The notes: generated from the sequence alone by a model not told the origin. 15,395 bases of DNA from Candidatus Heimdallarchaeota archaeon (GCA_030614005.1 JAUWKS010000071.1:1-15395), one strand, 5' to 3'. Counted from the first letter of the stretch, positions 2-6,733 are shown. A program made the numbers and translations.

Positions 2-1630
2 CCAAAAAGCAACACAACTATCTCTGCTTTGAGAGGTTGTGATTTACTTGTAAGAAAAGGTGAATTAATATCAATTATTGGACCTAGTGGTTCAGGAAAA
101 ACAACTCTAGTAAAAATTTTAGCTGGATTAGATTTTCCTTCAAGTGGAACAGTAAAAATAAAAGGTAAATCTTTACCATATCTGAGTGCTAGAAATATTA
201 GAAATTATAGAATGGAGAATATCAGCCTATTAGACCAATTCCCCGAACGAACCCTTTTCTTGAACATTAGTGTGAAAGATAATCTTGAATTTGCTTATAA
301 TTTACTAAAGAAAGAGGACAATTCTGAAGCTACCCTTGAACCATCTATAGTACTTGAGAACCTCGGAATTTCTCATCTGAAAAACCGTATAGTGAAAACA
401 TTATCTGGAGGAGAAATGACTCGAGTGGCCTTAGCATGTGCTGTTTCAAAAAACACTCCAATAATATTGTGTGATGAACCTACTGGTCAATTAGATAGTG
501 AGAATACTGAACGTGTTCGAGAATTATTAAATAGAGTAACAAGAGATTTTAAAACTACTATCTTAGTTGTTACTCATGATGTTCGATTTATCGAAGGTGT
601 AGATCGAACATTTGAAATTCTTGATGGTCGAGTCTCCTCTATTTTAAGTGCTGAAGATCAAATGAATTCCTCTTTGAAATTGGAATTTCCATTACAATTT
701 AAGAGTTATATTGATTCTACGATGACTGCAAGAATTCCTGAAGTGATTTATAGAACACTAAAGTTAGAAGCCAGTGTGAGCTACTCTGTGGATAAAAAAG
801 GAAAAGTTGAATTAAAAAATCCAGAAAATATTTCTCCTGACAAAATGGAATTGGAAAAATTAATACGAAAAGAGAAAGTTTTGAAGATTGAAGAATTAAC
901 AGAAAAATATAGAGAAGGAAAAAATGCAATAATTAAGCTAGAGAAGGTATCTAAAATTTATTCTACACCTGGTGAAGAAATTAATGCATTATCAAGTTTA
1001 AATCTAAACATTTTTTCTGGGGATATTATTTTTGTCCTTGGACCCAGTGGTTCTGGAAAAACAACCTTAATGAAATTATTGGCAGGTCTTGAACAAATTT
1101 CAGAAGGGCAAATTACAATTAATGGAACATTATTTAGCTTGCTTTCAGAACATGAGAGAGCTATTTTTAGAAGAACCTTTATGGGGATAATTGCTCAACA
1201 AGGAAACCTAAATCCCTTTCTAACTATTTATGAGAATTTAGGAATAAAAGAAATTTATTCTAGAAATAAAAAGAGTAATCAAAATCAAATAGAAAAAGAA
1301 AAAATAAACTTGCTTCAAAAGTTCCAGATTGAACATAGAAAAGATGCTTACCCATTAGAAATTTCTGGAGGTGAACTTCAACGGGCATCTCTAGCTTTGG
1401 CATTAAAAGGGTCGCCAAAATTTCTCCTATTAGATGAACCTACTGCGAATCTGGATTCTAAATTAGCTCAAACAACTATTGATTTAGTTTTAACCACTGC
1501 ACAAGAAATGAATTTAACTACAATTATTTCCACGCATGATGTTAGTTTATTACATGCTGGATCAAGAGTAATTCGATTGCTTGACGGTGAAATTATTCAG
1601 AATGGTATCTGTGTAAAAATGGATAGTTGA
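2..1630 (+). CDS. Tandem (two-NBD) LolD/MacB-type ABC ATPase with an AbrB/SpoVT-like linker; 5' end lies outside the window
   Basis: Two Walker A motifs (GPSGSGKTT x2), signatures LSGGE/ISGGE, Walker B ILCDEPT/LLLDEPT, H-loops VTHD/STHD. The frame is open from base 2 (PKSNTTISALRG...), so the TTG at 29 is probably not the true start. Confidence 0.9.
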   Translation, partial: PKSNTTISALRGCDLLVRKGELISIIGPSGSGKTTLVKILAGLDFPSSGTVKIKGKSLPYLSARNIRNYRMENISLLDQFPERTLFLNISVKDNLEFAYNLLKKEDNSEATLEPSIVLENLGISHLKNRIVKTLSGGEMTRVALACAVSKNTPIILCDEPTGQLDSENTERVRELLNRVTRDFKTTILVVTHDVRFIEGVDRTFEILDGRVSSILSAEDQMNSSLKLEFPLQFKSYIDSTMTARIPEVIYRTLKLEASVSYSVDKKGKVELKNPENISPDKMELEKLIRKEKVLKIEELTEKYREGKNAIIKLEKVSKIYSTPGEEINALSSLNLNIFSGDIIFVLGPSGSGKTTLMKLLAGLEQISEGQITINGTLFSLLSEHERAIFRRTFMGIIAQQGNLNPFLTIYENLGIKEIYSRNKKSNQNQIEKEKINLLQKFQIEHRKDAYPLEISGGELQRASLALALKGSPKFLLLDEPTANLDSKLAQTTIDLVLTTAQEMNLTTIISTHDVSLLHAGSRVIRLLDGEIIQNGICVKMDS

Positions 1631-1742
1631 ATATCTTACTTAAATTGAACATTCTTGAAGAAATTCTTCTTGGTTTATCCTTTGAAAGCTAATTGTTAGA
1701 AAATTAAACTTTTTTAATCAAATTACGCCTCAGCAATCTTGT

Positions 1743-1868
1743 GAACCTAAATCCATTGACTTCTGTTATCGTATTGGTCTTGATTATGTTTCTTGCTCTC
1801 CTTTACGAGTTCCTGTTACCCGATTAGCTGCTGCTCATGCTGTTATCAACAACGGTGCACGAAAGTAA
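1743..1868 (+). pseudogene. ppdK: Orphan 3'-terminal fragment of pyruvate,phosphate dikinase, copy 1 (41 codons + TAA)
   Basis: Translates to [41 protein letters not shown], matching the conserved PPDK C-terminus ([33 protein letters not shown]). Upstream in-frame sequence (QITPQQSC) is not PPDK, and no start or 5' part is present. Confidence 0.92.
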
Positions 1869-1884
1869 GCTCATCACAACAGAT

Positions 1885-1923
1885 ATCTCTCTCTTTTTTT
1901 GAGAGATTTTTCTCTTTTTTTTT
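1885..1923 (+). terminator. Hairpin + T-tract after ppdK fragment 1
   Basis: atctctc(1885-1891)/gagagat(1901-1907) stem followed by tttt-ctc-T9. Confidence 0.6.
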
Positions 1924-2011
1924 CAAATACTTATTATTATTCTTATTAGAACTTACAATGATGACAAGCACACCTTTTTCAGTTTTTTTAAAATTCATTG
2001 GATAATTATTT

Positions 2012-2036
2012 ATTGAATAGCTTGCTAATATTCAAT
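2012..2036 (-). terminator. Hairpin directly 3' of vapC
   Basis: attgaata(2012-2019)/tattcaat(2029-2036) inverted repeat abutting the stop codon; no clear U-tract. Confidence 0.35.
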
Positions 2037-2489
2037 TTAAAATGACAACTCATCAATAGAGCTACTTAGCTCAATATTTTCTTTCTTACAAGGACTTGTG
2101 AAATCATCATCAAATGATAATAGATGAGTTATACCATTTAATATGCATGTTGCTAAGATTAGTGCGTCATTTGGTAATAGTCCATTCTGAATTACTATAT
2201 CTAGTGCTATTTTATTTGTTTCTTCTGTTATATCTAAAACAATAAATGCTTCAAAAAAAAGGAATAATTCTTCTAGCTCTTTTTTTCTTTTTGTTATTTC
2301 CTTTGGTTTTGCTTTTAATTGATAACTTTTTAATCCAGATTTTGCTTTCAAATATACGTATAAAACTTCACTTAGAACGACACTATTTGTATATAGATTA
2401 TGTTTTGCTCTTAGTGGAGCTAAGTCTAATGTTCCATTAAGATGCTTCAAAATGATATTTGAATCAATAAAGACTTTTATGTCTCCCAT
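2037..2489 (-). CDS. vapC: PIN-domain VapC-family toxin
   Basis: VFIDSNII, LSEV, LLPNDALILATC, LLSFDDDF: complete acidic PIN motif set. Overlaps the upstream small gene by 13 nt. Confidence 0.9.
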   Translation of the reverse strand: MGDIKVFIDSNIILKHLNGTLDLAPLRAKHNLYTNSVVLSEVLYVYLKAKSGLKSYQLKAKPKEITKRKKELEELFLFFEAFIVLDITEETNKIALDIVIQNGLLPNDALILATCILNGITHLLSFDDDFTSPCKKENIELSSSIDELSF

Positions 2490-2665
2490 TCTTCTTCCAC
2501 TTCTCGTAATAATTTGGTTATATCCTTTTCCTTCAGTGATCCATGGAGTCTGTTCATACTATATTCAATCATAATTTCCCTTTCCAATTTCTTCTTTATT
2601 TTTGTAATATCTACTTTATCAAGTATTTCTTTGGAAAGATTTAATTTGATAGTTATTTCACTCAT
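2477..2665 (-). CDS. Small antitoxin-like protein (VapB role), 62 aa
   Basis: MSEITIKLNLSKEILDKVDI...EVEEEWET; directly upstream of and overlapping vapC. The GTG called at 2674 is more likely the GTGAT SD, with the start at ATG 2665. Confidence 0.75.
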   Translation of the reverse strand: MSEITIKLNLSKEILDKVDITKIKKKLEREIMIEYSMNRLHGSLKEKDITKLLREVEEEWET

Positions 2666-2869
2666 TGTTATCACATGTACTATTACTAGATAGAATAATT
2701 AAACATAATGTTAATAACACCATTTTAAAGTCATTTTCGACTCTGATTGTTTTATTTGTTTGTGATTTTTTGTTTCAATTCAACCAACAGTTAAGATCAT
2801 TAGAGTTTCTTTTGAAGATGTAAGTAAAAAATATTCCGTATGTATTAATGATAATTAGATTTGTTTGTC

Positions 2870-2972
2870 AAGTCCATTGACTTTTGTTATCGCTTTGGTT
2901 TGAATTACGTTAGCTGCTCTCCCTTGAGTTCCTGTTGCTCATGCAGTAATCAACAACGGTGCTCGTAAATAA
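2870..2972 (+). pseudogene. ppdK: Orphan 3'-terminal fragment of pyruvate,phosphate dikinase, copy 2 (degenerate)
   Basis: [19 protein letters not shown]-[2-nt deletion]-VPV-[15-nt deletion][11 protein letters not shown]; aligns with 1749-1868 (103 nt vs 120 nt). Confidence 0.9.
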
Positions 2973-2979
2973 TATTTCT

Positions 2980-3006
2980 AAAGACTCTTTTGCGAGTCTT
3001 TTTTTT
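2980..3006 (+). terminator. Hairpin + T-tract after ppdK fragment 2
   Basis: aaagactc-ttttgc-gagtcttt 8-bp stem followed by a T run; sequence unrelated to the terminator after copy 1. Confidence 0.65.
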
Positions 3007-3152
3007 CTTCTTTTTTTCTTTTCAGTTAATTCTATTCTTCTTACTATCGTTTTTTATTTTTCATTTTAAGCATTTTATTCAAAAAGTATCAAATAAATTA
3101 TTATATATGTTTAACTATATTTTTATATAATTGTTATTTTGAGGCGAACTAC

Positions 3153-4388
3153 TTGATTAATAAAAATCTAAAATTCAAAAGTTTCTTGATCCTTCTTTTG
3201 GTGATAGGGTTCTCTACGAGTTTTCTATCTGTTATTGCGGGGAGAACAACTGGGTTACCTGCAGTACAAGAAACTAGTAGAAACAGTGGTTTAACAGTAC
3301 TTTCTCTTGATCAGAATGATGTAACTGTTACAGCGTGTGCTAATGATATGGTGGCAACACTTAATCATTATGTTGATGTTGATAAGGACGTAATAACTTC
3401 CTTAGATGATCTTGATAATTCTTTGACCTCTAACCAAGATGACTTTATTATTTTGATGGGTCACAGCGTTCAAGAAGGTATTAGCATAGACAACCAACTA
3501 GTTGGTTGGGATGAAATTTCTATTATCACTGAAGAAAACTCTGATAAAACTTTCATTATTCCCACTTGCTTTAGTTCAAGTTTCAGTGAATATACAACCT
3601 TGGATAATGTCCTATCCCCTTTTGTAGGTGAAGTTGATTTTAGAATTAGTGTTGACTTTACTATGCTTTCAGTTGGTTATCTTTTAGATGATCATGCTCT
3701 TCTGGATGAAGGTATTGCTAAGTTTTGGGAGGACATAAACTATTTCATACAACCTCAATTATCCTTAGTCTATGTGTATAAACCTATCAATGAGCCTGGT
3801 GGGGCGATAACTTCTAATGTCAATCTTTTTGATATGGAATGTGCTCTCAATTCTTTCATTGTTGGAGCTTCTGCTGGTGCTGCTTTTGGTGCTATAGCTA
3901 TGAAATATCTTTTTAAAAGAACACCTGCTGCTGGAATAGCCTTCTTATCCTCTGTTTGCTCATTTGTCGCAAATTGGGTTCTATATACGGCCTTTATTAG
4001 ATCTTTGGGATGGGAATCCAATTTTCTTTCCATGAAAGATTTAGGTACAACTGGATGGTTCGATGTAGATTATGATGACTTTCCACTTTGTCGTTTTATC
4101 TATTTATTTAGATATCACACATATTCCACTTATGAATTAACAACTGATATCTATGTGAGATGGGATGGTTGCCATGTTCAATCTACGTATACTGTTAGAT
4201 TAGAACTTTTCTTTGTACAATCAATGACTTTAGTAACTGATATCTTGGATCCATCTTTGTTATGGAATATGCAGTTAGTATATTGGAGCCTTCTAAATCA
4301 CGAAGTAGTCGTTCACTACACTCCTCCCCCTCCTCCTTCTCCACCTATTGGTGGCGGTGGTAGTGGACCTAAGGATGTTATAGATTAG
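3153..4388 (+). CDS. Secreted protein with putative caspase-like (clan CD / CHAT-type) His-Cys domain, hydrophobic Gly/Ala hairpin and Pro/Gly tail
   Basis: TTG start after GAGGCGA SD; N-terminal basic+hydrophobic signal; FIILMGHS ... FIIPTCFS strand-His/strand-Cys pattern; FIVGASAGAAFGAIA and AAGIAFLSSVCSFVANWVL helices; ends YTPPPPPSPPIGGGGSGPKDVID. The ORF is clearly real; the function is inferred. Confidence 0.55.
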   Translation: MINKNLKFKSFLILLLVIGFSTSFLSVIAGRTTGLPAVQETSRNSGLTVLSLDQNDVTVTACANDMVATLNHYVDVDKDVITSLDDLDNSLTSNQDDFIILMGHSVQEGISIDNQLVGWDEISIITEENSDKTFIIPTCFSSSFSEYTTLDNVLSPFVGEVDFRISVDFTMLSVGYLLDDHALLDEGIAKFWEDINYFIQPQLSLVYVYKPINEPGGAITSNVNLFDMECALNSFIVGASAGAAFGAIAMKYLFKRTPAAGIAFLSSVCSFVANWVLYTAFIRSLGWESNFLSMKDLGTTGWFDVDYDDFPLCRFIYLFRYHTYSTYELTTDIYVRWDGCHVQSTYTVRLELFFVQSMTLVTDILDPSLLWNMQLVYWSLLNHEVVVHYTPPPPPSPPIGGGGSGPKDVID

Positions 4389-4410
4389 AGAGATTTTCTC
4401 TCTTTTTTTT
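4387..4410. terminator. Hairpin + T-tract between convergent genes
   Basis: agagaga-ttt-tctctct stem then a T run; related to 1901-1924 and 6034-6058. Confidence 0.6.
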
Positions 4411-4417
4411 CTTTTAT

Positions 4418-4921
4418 TTACATTTGAGCGATTTCTTTTGCTTTTATAATTGCTTCCAAATAGATTTCTTCTTTTAGCCTAAATCCTTCTTCTAAGAGTT
4501 TTGCCAATAGGTCGATAAATTCTTCAAGTGTGATTTCTTTTATAGCCAACGCTTTTAGTAATACATAAATTGTTCCTTTTGGTGTTAATCCCAAAATTTT
4601 TGCTGCTGTTCGAGCTGCAATCTCATCAATAATTACTTCTTTGATTTTCCTTTCTTTTGCTATTGCTATTACTGCTTCTTCCCCTGCGTGTAATTTCATT
4701 GGAAGTGAAAGATTCTTTGCTTTTTCTACTTTCAGCCATCCTTCTTTTATCGCTTGTTCTATAATAAAAGCATCTGGTTCTCCTAGTTCCTTTCCTTTAT
4801 CAACCACTTCTTTTTTTACTTCCTCTGGAATAATTACTGAACCGTAAATTTCCTTTAATAAAAGTAGTTTTCCAATTTTTGCTAGATAGATCAAAGGTGT
4901 TGCGTTTGTTACGACGCTCAT
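4418..4921 (-). CDS. DUF3368-type PIN-domain toxin
   Basis: VVTNATPLIYLAKIG, VIIPEEVKKEV, LHAGEEAVIAIA, VIIDEIAAR...LGLTPKGTIYVL; ATGA overlap with the upstream antitoxin. Confidence 0.88.
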   Translation of the reverse strand: MSVVTNATPLIYLAKIGKLLLLKEIYGSVIIPEEVKKEVVDKGKELGEPDAFIIEQAIKEGWLKVEKAKNLSLPMKLHAGEEAVIAIAKERKIKEVIIDEIAARTAAKILGLTPKGTIYVLLKALAIKEITLEEFIDLLAKLLEEGFRLKEEIYLEAIIKAKEIAQM

Positions 4922-5217
4922 ATTAATCCCTTCAGGTCTTCCTGCAGTTCTTCAATTGTGTAGGGCACTCTAATGCCCTTCTTCTTCACTTCAGCAATCA
5001 TTTCCCATAATGATAATTCACATCTCTCAGCTGCTTGCCAAAGAGTTATTTTCCCCTCTTCATACTTTCTAAGAAATTTTTCTATTTGCCATTCTGCAGT
5101 TGAACTAATGAGAAATCTCCTAATCACTGTTGATCTGTCCATTCCTTCTTCTCTAGCAATTCGATCAATCAGTTTAGCAAGTTTGTCTTCCACTCTTGTT
5201 GTTAAAGTAATAGGCAT
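4918..5217 (-). CDS. UPF0175-family antitoxin with N-terminal ribbon-helix-helix
   Basis: ITLTTRVEDKLAKLIDRIAREEGMDRSTVIRRFL (RHH), then YEEGKITLWQAAERCELSLWEM...KKGI (UPF0175 pattern). Confidence 0.88.
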   Translation of the reverse strand: MPITLTTRVEDKLAKLIDRIAREEGMDRSTVIRRFLISSTAEWQIEKFLRKYEEGKITLWQAAERCELSLWEMIAEVKKKGIRVPYTIEELQEDLKGLI

Positions 5218-5227
5218 AAATAATCAC

Positions 5228-5254
5228 TGTATTAAATTTATTCATTTTAATACA
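5228..5254. promoter_or_regulatory. Candidate autoregulatory operator of the UPF0175/DUF3368 operon
   Basis: Perfect 9-bp inverted repeat tgtattaaa-N9-tttaataca, 10 nt upstream of the antitoxin ATG. Confidence 0.5.
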
Positions 5255-5282
5255 TAAATTTTTCTTATTTTTTCAATTTAGA

Positions 5283-5461
5283 TTATATTTCATTAAGATG
5301 CATCAAAATGATATTTGAATCAATAAAGACTGTTATGTCTCCCATTCTTCTTTCACTTCTCGTAATAATTTGGTTATATCCTTTTCCTTCAGTGATTCAT
5401 GGAGTCTGTTCATACTATATTCAATCATAATTTCCATTTCCAATTTCTTCTTTATTTTTGT
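5283..5461 (-). pseudogene. Truncated second copy of the vapB/vapC junction
   Basis: 5291-5461 matches 2435-2605 without gaps (5 mismatches in 171 nt by manual count). Encodes the antitoxin C-terminal half without its start, and a 20-aa toxin stub MGDITVFIDSNIILMHLNEI*. Confidence 0.9.
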
Positions 5462-5575
5462 TTTTATACTTTCTTTCCATATTTTCTTTCATCGTTTACT
5501 AAAAATAGAATGGTAGTTGTTAGAAATTTTCTATTTACAGAAACTAATATTAATCCTGTGAATTCATGAAGAGAG

Positions 5576-5983
5576 GTGAATCTCCTGAATTTACAAGCAT
5601 TTACTTTAATTGTATCAATTTTCTGGTTATTATATGAAAGAATAGCGGAGATGCTATTTAATTGGCTAGAATCAGCTTTTCGAAATAGAAAGTCAGCTCA
5701 ATTTGATAAACGGTTTAAAATCTTTAAGAGAATTTTTTCTTTTGTTTTTGCTTTTTCAATAGGGTTGGTCGCAGCTTTTGTTGGTGATGTGTCCATTTTC
5801 ACAGCTTTAAATGACTCTGGAGCTTTAATGGTCTCCCCAGCTTTGATACTAGTAGACAAGATATTGCTTACCCCTCTAATCTTCTGCACAGGTACAGATA
5901 TGCTTCATCTTGTTTTGTCTTTTATTCAAAGATCAAAAGAAAATATGCGAAATCAACAAAGAGATAATTCTGTTAAAGCCTAA
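5576..5983 (+). CDS. Small membrane protein, phage holin-like (start codon uncertain)
   Basis: Three hydrophobic segments. SIGLVAAFVGDVSIFTAL...ILLTPLIFCTGTDMLHLVL resembles the 'lGi..A...idif..l...ilTGl.i..Gs..lHdl' pattern of phage holin-like proteins; charged C-tail. Confidence 0.45.
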   Translation: MNLLNLQAFTLIVSIFWLLYERIAEMLFNWLESAFRNRKSAQFDKRFKIFKRIFSFVFAFSIGLVAAFVGDVSIFTALNDSGALMVSPALILVDKILLTPLIFCTGTDMLHLVLSFIQRSKENMRNQQRDNSVKA

Positions 5984-6023
5984 AGTAAGCAAATTTCTAT
6001 GGTGCATTCGGTGGAAACTTAAT

Positions 6024-6058
6024 TCTTTTTTTTGAGGGATTTTTTCCTCTTTTTTTTC
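6024..6058. terminator. Hairpin + T-tract between convergent genes
   Basis: tcttttttttgagggattttttcctcttttttttc; near copy of 1892-1924 and 4388-4411. Confidence 0.55.
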
Positions 6059-6064
6059 TTTTAT

Positions 6065-6568
6065 TTACATTTGAGTGATTTCTTTAGCTTTTTTTATTGC
6101 TTCCAGATAAATTCCTTTTCTTAGATAAAATCTACTCCACGAAAGCTTTTTTAAAAGTCCCTTAAATTCATTTAGAGTGATTTCATTTATTTCTAATGCT
6201 TTCAGTAGTACATAAATCGTTCCTTTTGGAGTTAAACCTAAATCCTTTGCTGCTATTCGAGCAGCTTTCCCATCTATTATTACATCGTTAATTCTCTTCT
6301 CTTTTGCTATTGCTATTACCGCTATGTCCCATGGTTGTAAATTCATTATAAATGGAGTATTCATTGCTCTAATCACCATTAACCACCCTTCTTCAATAGC
6401 TTGTTCAATGAATAATATATCATGTAATCTATACGACTTTCTTCTATTTACAACCTCTTTTCTTACTACCTCTGGAATAATAACTAAATCAAAAATTTGT
6501 TTCAATAAATGAAATTTACCTAATTTTTCTAAATAGATTAAAGGTACTGTGCTTATCACTGCGGTCAT
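6065..6568 (-). CDS. Second DUF3368-type PIN protein, diverged
   Basis: From ATG 6568 (the GTGAT at 6577 is the SD) it is 167 aa, ungapped against 4418-4921, about 60% identical by manual count. The downstream non-coding sequence is also shared. Confidence 0.85.
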   Translation of the reverse strand: MTAVISTVPLIYLEKLGKFHLLKQIFDLVIIPEVVRKEVVNRRKSYRLHDILFIEQAIEEGWLMVIRAMNTPFIMNLQPWDIAVIAIAKEKRINDVIIDGKAARIAAKDLGLTPKGTIYVLLKALEINEITLNEFKGLLKKLSWSRFYLRKGIYLEAIKKAKEITQM

Positions 6569-6573
6569 ACTTA

Positions 6574-6629
6574 TCACTTCAAATCTTTTTGAAATTCTTA
6601 GGTTGTAAGGTTCACCCTAGCCCCTTTTT
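6574..6629 (-). pseudogene. Remnant of UPF0175 antitoxin C-terminus
   Basis: Frameshifted pieces KKG..., PYNL, EFQKDLK* correspond to KKKGIRVPYTIEELQEDLK of 4918-5217, at the same position relative to the toxin. Confidence 0.6.
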
Positions 6630-6733
6630 ATGCTATTTATTTGCAGCTTATTTTTCTTTTTGTATTTTCATTCCTTTTTTCTGTCGTTTTCCTAGAAAGG
6701 AAATTATATAATTAGGTAATATAATTACTGTTT

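Follow-up and report, generated by a model that had tools for sequence, protein, structure and literature searches.

Orphan ppdK 3′ ends in a Heimdall-group archaeon point to a gene tail that has repeatedly served as an insertion site

Two detached 3′ ends of ppdK, the gene for pyruvate,phosphate dikinase (PPDK), lie in a 15,395-nucleotide contig of a Candidatus Heimdallarchaeota archaeon (GCA_030614005.1; JAUWKS010000071.1:1-15395). This contig, here called the window, is the whole of contig C118 of genome G000 (126 contigs, 90% complete), and comparison with relatives gives the well-supported conclusion that the ppdK 3′ end is an insertion hotspot in one genus of Heimdall-group archaea. The first fragment consists of 41 intact PPDK C-terminal codons (positions 1743 to 1865) followed by TAA at 1866 to 1868. 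Its peptide is 78 to 85% identical to the PPDK of a congener (E = 3.4 × 10−16), weak DNA homology extends 5′ to about position 1731, and no start codon yields an open reading frame (ORF) covering it, the open frame being just 60 amino acids (aa) long. The second fragment is a decayed short copy with coding blocks at 2870 to 2926 (19 residues) and 2937 to 2969 (11 residues) before a TAA at 2970 to 2972 (E = 1.3 × 10−6); relative to the first, its frame is disrupted by a 2-nt deletion and a 15-nt deletion, and its orthologue on metagenome contig L157 is intact. Both fragments are on the plus strand with 1.1 kb between them, both end in NNGARK-stop, neither is in the ORF list, and no 5′ part of ppdK was found in the window. 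As positions 2 to 1630 encode a duplicated ABC ATPase and not ppdK, the observation made in the first-pass annotation stands: two orphan ppdK ends in one orientation, each ending in NNGARK-stop and followed by a terminator-like hairpin, with no 5′ part.

The terminator-like structures 3′ of the fragments (Table 1) belong to a wider set. A scan for hairpins with T-runs found eight sites between positions 1600 and 6800, against 2.2 expected from shuffled sequences, and the other ppdK ends that we aligned in relatives also have a hairpin and T-run directly 3′. Two of the sites in the window (4387 to 4403 and 6034 to 6049) have no ppdK copy attached. A third decayed copy was sought at 4340 to 4400, 5980 to 6030, and 6580 to 6650, where parts of the hairpin and T-run recur with no convincing coding remnant. 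Neither Rfam nor ARAGORN gave a match anywhere in the window. Five public sequencing runs from marine sediment and cold seeps (X1 to X5, from two studies) contain more than half of the 31-mers sampled from positions 1400 to 3400. We rejected an assembly artifact as the source of the fragments, in agreement with the first-pass opinion that this was unlikely: the same layout recurs in several independent metagenome-assembled genomes and metagenome contigs.

The locus continues on a second contig of the same genome. The last 127 nt of contig C88 (G000:C88:11974-12100) match the first 127 nt of the window exactly, and the two contigs therefore abut. The break falls inside the duplicated ABC ATPase gene; a 49-nt stretch (78 to 126 and 1038 to 1086) recurs in the two halves of this gene with 80% identity. 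C88 carries, in order, the end of a gene of a 1212-aa type, a helicase-MZB gene, a metallophosphoesterase gene, a beta-propeller gene, a piece of ppdK, an rve-type transposase remnant, two FtsX permease genes, and the start of the ABC ATPase gene; the ATPase is the last gene of an FtsX-FtsX-ABC operon that lies inside the displaced ppdK copy. The piece on C88 and the first fragment are together colinear (79%) with an uninterrupted 108-codon copy on L157; a VapBC cassette (89% identical) and the intact short copy come next on that contig. This colinearity makes the first fragment most likely the distal part of a single displaced 108-codon copy, of which codons 792 to 853 lie on C88, and the copy was probably split at about codon 853 by a later 6.2-kb insertion made up of an insertion sequence (IS) remnant and the ABC transporter operon. 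The edges of the insertion may be marked, weakly, by GCATC/GCAATC. The proposal that the first fragment is an independently displaced end was thus not upheld. Read across both contigs, the order in G000 is a module with aCas1, helicase, and phosphoesterase genes, the beta-propeller gene, the long copy (probably split later, with the first fragment as its distal part), the VapBC cassette, the short copy (the second fragment), more cassettes, and the flank.

Two details of the long copy deserve mention. The C-terminal remnant of the rve_3 (DDE) transposase (G000:C88, 5573 to 5875) begins exactly where the copy breaks off. An in-frame TAG is found both in the ppdK piece on C88 and in an otherwise full-length ppdK of genome G034 (G034:C154:39366-39485).

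We searched for the 41-aa peptide in 41 related genomes. Most genomes with a match have one full-length ppdK each, while two to six matches occur in seven genomes of the genus (G000 counted) and three in one genome of another family. One 120-kb contig, G010:C19, carries an intact ppdK, a 17-kb module, a 108-codon copy, two genes for secreted proteins, a second 108-codon copy with a frameshift, and then the 359-aa gene of a flank that is shared with the window. On G009:C31, a DUF3368/UPF0175 pair separates two of the three ppdK copies; on both G005:C110 and G004:C181, a toxin-antitoxin pair precedes a short copy and then a conserved flank; G005:C106 and C104 have module ends between ppdK copies; and a further array is found on G040:C188. 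Three to four copies are present on metagenome contigs L153/L157 and L154, L156 also carries an array, and one four-copy array lies on a single 78-kb contig. The more decayed copies are the flank-proximal ones. G010:C19 and the four-copy contig bear out the first-pass proposal that insertions recur at the ppdK 3′ end and that displaced ends stack up downstream in one orientation, and the suggested Asgard affiliation of the host was correct, as it belongs to the Heimdall group. It had also been predicted that an intact ppdK would lie to the left of the window and that there would be further fragments in the same orientation; a further piece lies on C88, and the intact gene is present in G010:C19 but not in the G000 assembly. 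The public records of G009 are labeled “Candidatus Bathyarchaeia archaeon” although the genome falls in the same genus as the Heimdallarchaeota, probably a labeling error.

A comparison with empty sites had been proposed as well, and near-empty sites were found in G008, G006, and L149, where ppdK is followed by one HEAT-repeat gene (two ORFs in G008) and the flank; all comparisons of near-empty and occupied ppdK sites are between species. The slot between the long and the short copy holds different toxin-antitoxin families in G000, G005, G009, and L157, and the families seen there (PIN/65-aa, ParD-like/PIN, and DUF3368/UPF0175) are unrelated; the G004 contig covers only the part of the slot with the toxin-antitoxin pair, the short copy, and the flank. 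The occupant in the window is a VapBC-type pair located between the two fragments. Copies of its PIN gene that are 89% (L157) and 76% (L154) identical also lie between ppdK copies, with the gene for the 65-aa antitoxin conserved alongside on both contigs. The ABC transporter modules are paralogous duplicates.

Two metagenome contigs show other states of the site. On L151 (Ga0255448_1635, 1357 to 2195), which comes from a close relative, an intact ppdK is directly followed by homologues of the window genes at 5576 to 5983 (87% aa identity) and 6065 to 6577 (81% aa identity); this strain is without everything that separates ppdK from position 5576 in G000. On L152 (Ga0307375_10194688, 386 to 1029), a ppdK end is followed by short remnants of the nuclease-fold gene described below, which run directly into the last part of the phosphoesterase gene; nearly all of the 17-kb module has been deleted from the inside.

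The displaced copies fall into two classes, one of 108 codons (start at about codon 792) and one of 40 to 52 codons (start at about codons 849 to 863). The start of the long copies lies at codons 792 to 795 for two copies each in G010 and G005 and for the one on G000:C88; in G009 it lies at codon 800. Short copies begin at codon 849 (two copies), at codons 859 to 864 (five copies, including one on L154), at codon 871, and at codon 876. Copies that share a start point differ in the cargo ahead of them, and this clustering of starts before differing cargo is our main argument for a site preference.

An intact ppdK with a 3′ end of different origin was seen in relatives only. The ppdK genes of two close relatives, G004, where the module lies beside the gene, and the near-empty G008, are 91.7% identical at the nucleotide level over codons 1 to 791, with an abrupt drop at nt 2312 (codon 771) to 72 to 77% for the rest of the gene. 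The terminator hairpin of the flank-proximal short copy in G004 and G005 is of the same type as the one behind the intact gene in G008 and G006, which fits an old 3′ end that was pushed downstream. The first-pass model, in which an inserting element carries a replacement 3′ end and displaces the old one, thus held in part: the end is replaced in the module-bearing G004, but the breakpoint is not the one that a simple attP × attB crossover within the repeat predicts. Several neighboring cassettes (3023 to 6650), which are without any ppdK copy, also speak against it.

The 17-kb module encodes a conserved protein of 79 to 98 aa (no Pfam match), one or two LAGLIDADG-HTH proteins, a TPR protein, a DEAD helicase with an MZB domain, a metallophosphoesterase, a protein of 825 to 893 aa, and a protein of 1212 aa. 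The gene for the last of these lies outside the window, on C88 and in relatives. We modeled its C-terminal 423 aa (predicted local distance difference test [pLDDT], 60.5), and the top 23 structure matches are all casposases or Cas1, including casposase 6opm (best E = 3.9 × 10−4; template modeling [TM] score, 0.4 to 0.5). E, H, and D residues are conserved in a spacing that we take to be Cas1-like. With moderate confidence, the model suggests that the 1212-aa protein has a Cas1 fold and represents Asgard aCas1, in line with published aCas1 loci. Pfam searches of the Cas1-like region at E values up to 10 gave no Cas1 match, and a sequence search of the PDB with profiles of the 1212-aa and 893-aa families gave no meaningful match. 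Paralogues with 22 to 26% identity to the 1212-aa protein occur elsewhere in G000.

The 825- to 893-aa protein has no Pfam match and is confined to the genus, its copies being only 26 to 32% identical to each other. Its gene is convergent to the ppdK end and directly adjoins it in five loci from four genomes, while on L150 a 183-aa ORF separates the two. The structural model (pLDDT, 74) contains two restriction endonuclease-like PD-(D/E)xK domains with a conserved D...ExK motif, and matches include the nuclease domains of Can2/Card1, AF1548, the R2 endonuclease domain, and restriction enzymes. A homologue search with the 893-aa protein returned two matches (100% and 80% identical), and a protein atlas search gave weak leads to NERD and Mrr nucleases, all with scores below 0.9. 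Between this gene and the ppdK stop codon lies a 33-nt block, CTATATAAATAGATTCGAAAGAGACCTCCCTAT, which is conserved with zero or one mismatch in five loci. It sits about 105 to 150 nt after the ppdK stop, contains a TATA-like palindrome, and has no occurrence beyond these loci in 11 genomes of the genus; Rfam gave no family match at or around it. The module ends showed no short target duplication, the scanned ORFs included no recognizable TnpB or PolB, and PADLOC returned generic helicase and HTH matches only. The module itself may be a mobile unit, a defense system that has settled at the hotspot, or the machinery that drives it.

A tyrosine or serine integrase near the gene had been predicted, and none was found. 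Across 82 genomes of the class, no tyrosine recombinase (PF00589) match lies near any ppdK end, the nearest one being 30 kb upstream in G010; this search includes the fully contiguous G010 island and metagenome contigs of 78 kb and 135 kb as far as they were fetched. With no PF00589 match near the arrays, IntI is likewise missing there. Serine recombinase (PF00239) matches were absent from the islands of the five genomes checked, and Pfam scans of about 70 island ORFs recovered no tyrosine or serine recombinase.

The anatomy of the locus, the arrays and near-empty sites in relatives, the one replaced 3′ end, and the lack of a classical integrase near ppdK ends were all observed directly. The account that we favor, with reasonable though not high confidence, is that the fragments are relics of repeated, site-preferring insertions into the ppdK 3′ end, which have produced a hypervariable island. 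Each insertion would leave ppdK with a complete 3′ end and terminator and shift the older copy downstream; repeated displacement would therefore pile up copies in one orientation between the modules, decaying toward the flank. The insertions may be of the Campbell type or the cassette type, carried out either by an enzyme acting in trans or by host recombination on short ppdK homology. At the gene level, the 17-kb module would supply the best suspects, namely its Cas1-fold protein and its double PD-(D/E)xK nuclease. We rank site-preferring insertion first, followed by recombination without a dedicated system, a hidden classical integrase, and duplication by a Cas1-type enzyme.

Several results weigh against site-preferring insertion. 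A search with PF02896 gave no match over the cutoff for an intact ppdK in the 90%-complete, 126-contig assembly, and the short-copy starts scatter over codons 849 to 876, which makes the term “site-specific” soft. No recombinase is tied to the small cassettes, no excised or circular form was seen, although reads were not searched for one, the Cas1-fold model is just moderate (pLDDT of 60 and TM scores of about 0.4 to 0.5), and a search for terminal inverted repeats at the ends of the module in G010 and G005 found nothing above chance. The codon 771 breakpoint lies 21 codons upstream of the long-copy start and hence outside the duplicated segment, so that homologous exchange or coconversion fits better than a crossover inside an att site; the position suggests that strains have swapped the island as a whole by ordinary homologous exchange. 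Finally, copies within a genome (86 to 94% identity in G005 and 93% in G009) are more alike than copies from different genomes, a likeness that local duplication or gene conversion could explain with no element-borne 3′ end.

The last two results keep alive a model with no dedicated system, in which segmental duplication, unequal crossing-over, gene conversion, IS activity, and exchange of the island between strains by homologous recombination act on a permissive locus immediately 3′ of a conserved gene. The rve_3 remnant at the exact split of the G000 long copy, the paralogous ABC transporter modules, and the cassettes at 3023 to 6650 that have no ppdK copy all speak for such a mixture, as do the close similarity of copies within a genome and the location of the G004/G008 breakpoint in ordinary homologous sequence. 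What it does not readily account for is that the same start points recur before unrelated cargo in different species, that one slot holds unrelated toxin-antitoxin families, and that the 33-nt block is invariant while the adjoining proteins share just 26 to 32% identity. We regard this model as unlikely, although it is the strongest of the alternatives.

Somewhat less probable again is the classical first-pass model of integrative elements that each encode a tyrosine or serine integrase and bring along a ppdK 3′ end on their attP, as e14 and phage 21 do at icd; we would then be seeing remnants without the integrase, or the integrase genes would fall into assembly gaps. Direct repeats of the 3′ end, a restored gene, and tandem accretion are the textbook footprint of such elements, and copy starts would cluster if attP identity begins at the crossover site. 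The islands are often broken at contig ends, so integrase genes could be hidden. This explanation has to contend with the missing PF00589 matches near ppdK ends in the 82 genomes, with the islands of five genomes that have no PF00239 match, and with a breakpoint at codon 771, upstream of the repeat.

An extension of site-preferring insertion, which we offer as speculation, is that the ppdK tails are the working recombination sites of an integrase-less cassette platform that would accept anything from 1-kb toxin-antitoxin pairs to 17-kb units at two fixed points and would be served in trans by the Cas1-fold protein, the helicase, the phosphoesterase, and the double nuclease. A Cas1-family integrase that makes the repeats on the spot, in the manner of CRISPR spacer acquisition, by staggered attacks at the two borders of the ppdK tail and gap filling that duplicates it, would suit the conserved E..H..D of the Cas1-fold protein in the large module, the polarity of the arrays with the most decayed copies farthest from the gene, the very diverse cargo and small cassettes with no recombinase of their own, and the similarity of copies within genomes, but it is very improbable: the G010 copies that flank the module are just 70% identical, the aCas1 module lies inside the array and not beside it, no terminal inverted repeats were found, and we know of no precedent for a stagger of 120 to 390 bp.

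Site-preferring insertion at ppdK would have counterparts in bacteria. In E. coli, e14 and phage 21 integrate at the 3′ end of icd, and the element-encoded tyrosine integrase adjoins the att site. In Streptococcus thermophilus, ICESt1 and ICESt3, with accretion of cis-mobilizable elements (CIMEs), occupy the 3′ end of fda in a tyrosine integrase-dependent manner. As at ppdK, these systems target the 3′ end of a housekeeping gene, keep the gene intact, and leave a displaced 3′ copy at the far end of the insert, and tandem stacking leaves units without an integrase between repeats; unlike them, the ppdK locus has no adjoining integrase but has two copy-length classes and cassettes down to 1 kb. 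A further counterpart is the variable islands of the tycheposon type in Prochlorococcus (bioRxiv 10.1101/2020.12.28.424599). These reportedly form at tRNA genes by elements that carry tyrosine recombinases. There too, arrays of partial target-gene copies mark past insertions and cargo stays behind, whereas at ppdK the target is a protein gene, the host is an archaeon, and there is no such recombinase nearby. Integron arrays resemble the locus in that small cassettes, in many cases toxin-antitoxin pairs, are lined up next to a fixed anchor and have a repeated element like a recombination site behind each of them. They differ in that ppdK has no IntI, that the repeat is the tail of a coding gene with a terminator hairpin and not attC, and that each ppdK cassette keeps an orientation, and presumably promoters, of its own.

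For some casposons, the insertion site is likewise the 3′ end of a protein-coding gene (aEF-2). Asgard aCas1 loci were reportedly described by Makarova et al. in CRISPR J in 2020. Because aCas1-TnpB loci are often flanked by repeats, aCas1 has been proposed to be a transposase (Altae-Tran et al. 2023; PMC10691335). The 1212-aa module protein, with its predicted Cas1/casposase-like fold, links the ppdK locus to both, while the module is unlike them in having no recognized TnpB or PolB, terminal inverted repeats, or short target duplication, and the repeats at ppdK are gene tails of 120 to 330 bp. The Asgard elements described so far insert at tRNA genes or short AT-rich motifs (PMC8813620 and PMC11529989). 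Neither paper mentions ppdK as a target, and a full-text literature search for a ppdK integration site returned nothing relevant.

Bacteria already provide examples of elements that insert at the 3′ end of a protein gene, displace copies of it, and accrete in tandem. What is new here is the ppdK target, the Heimdall-group Asgard host, the two copy-length classes, and the exchange of toxin-antitoxin families at one slot, together with the lack of an integrase and the fact that an aCas1 module and an invariant 33-nt block are linked to the site. Little is known about gene gain and loss in Asgard archaea. At ppdK, a housekeeping gene contains a recurrent insertion site that is well delimited, and comparison of species offers many natural before and after states. 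With a defined site physically linked to the aCas1 module, the role of aCas1 and the movement of integrase-less cassettes become testable on a defined DNA substrate. If the speculative cassette platform were real, it would provide the first target site and the first biological role for an aCas1 system; should the mechanism prove to be ordinary recombination, the locus would keep its value for tracking strain-level variation in these uncultured hosts.

Table 1. Features of the ppdK locus; positions are those of the window unless a contig is named
Feature	Position	Strand	Basis or remark
First fragment, PPDK codons ~856/860-900 plus TAA	1731..1868	+	Translation, alignment to PPDK
Second fragment, decayed short ppdK copy, codons ~861-900	2870..2972	+	Translation, alignment to first fragment
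Terminator-like hairpin and T-run 3′ of first fragment	1881..1923 (stem 1888-1906)	+	Hairpin/T-run scan
Hairpin, T-run (2980-3001), and CTTTTCAG tail 3′ of second fragment	2980..3022	+	Hairpin/T-run scan
ppdK piece, codons 792-853, in-frame TAG	C88:5444-5641		Peptide search
33-nt block	L037:8246-8278 (G010); L044:3275-3307; L009:916-948; L042:5184-5216; L045:5075-5107		
Duplicated ABC ATPase gene, 3′ part (565 aa when joined to C88)	2..1630	+	Pfam ABC_tran, 3e-59, two domains
PIN-domain toxin, VapC-like, 150 aa	2037..2489	-	Pfam PIN, 4.6e-19
Putative antitoxin, 65 aa	2477..2674	-	ORF list; no Pfam match
Cassettes without ppdK copy	3023..6650	mixed	Pfam, ORFs, comparison to G010
411-aa protein, function not assigned	3153-4388	+	ORF in the 3023-6650 stretch
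DUF3368 PIN-like and UPF0175/RHH pair	4418-5217	-	Pfam
Partial duplicate of VapBC cassette, 96% identical	5285-5461		Sequence comparison
135-aa ORF	5576-5983	+	ORF list
Lone DUF3368 gene	6065-6577	-	Pfam
Conserved chromosomal flank	6651..15395		Syntenic with G010:C19 just downstream of the last ppdK copy
367-aa gene	6734-7837		In flank; orthologue of the 359-aa G010 gene, 83% aa identity
LVIVD/TSP3 surface protein, 946 aa	9371-12211	-	Domain matches
179-aa gene	13660-14199		In flank; ORF

The remaining features of the window are cargo and flank (Table 1). The 65-aa antitoxin ORF extends at its 3′ end 13 nt into the PIN gene, an arrangement of the VapBC type. A partial duplicate of this cassette, comprising the start of the PIN gene and two thirds of the antitoxin gene, adjoins the DUF3368/UPF0175 pair farther downstream. 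The hairpin and tail after the second fragment are orthologous to the sequence after the last copy in G010, and the stretch from 3023 to 6650, which is missing from G010 at the equivalent place, is therefore extra DNA relative to that genome. The two DUF3368 PIN-like genes in this stretch (4418 to 4921 and 6065 to 6577) share 60% aa identity, the second having lost its UPF0175 partner, and their 92-nt 3′ flanks (4394 to 4485 and 6041 to 6132) are 85% identical, each starting with a hairpin and T-run like those after the ppdK ends.

Proteins encoded in the flank are 83 to 88% identical to their counterparts on G010:C19. The 946-aa surface protein combines 14 LVIVD repeats with TSP3 repeats and a PA14-like Ca-binding domain, and its G010 counterpart is much shorter. 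Paralogous LVIVD proteins of 673 to 682 aa are encoded in the ABC transporter modules and between two ppdK copies of G005.

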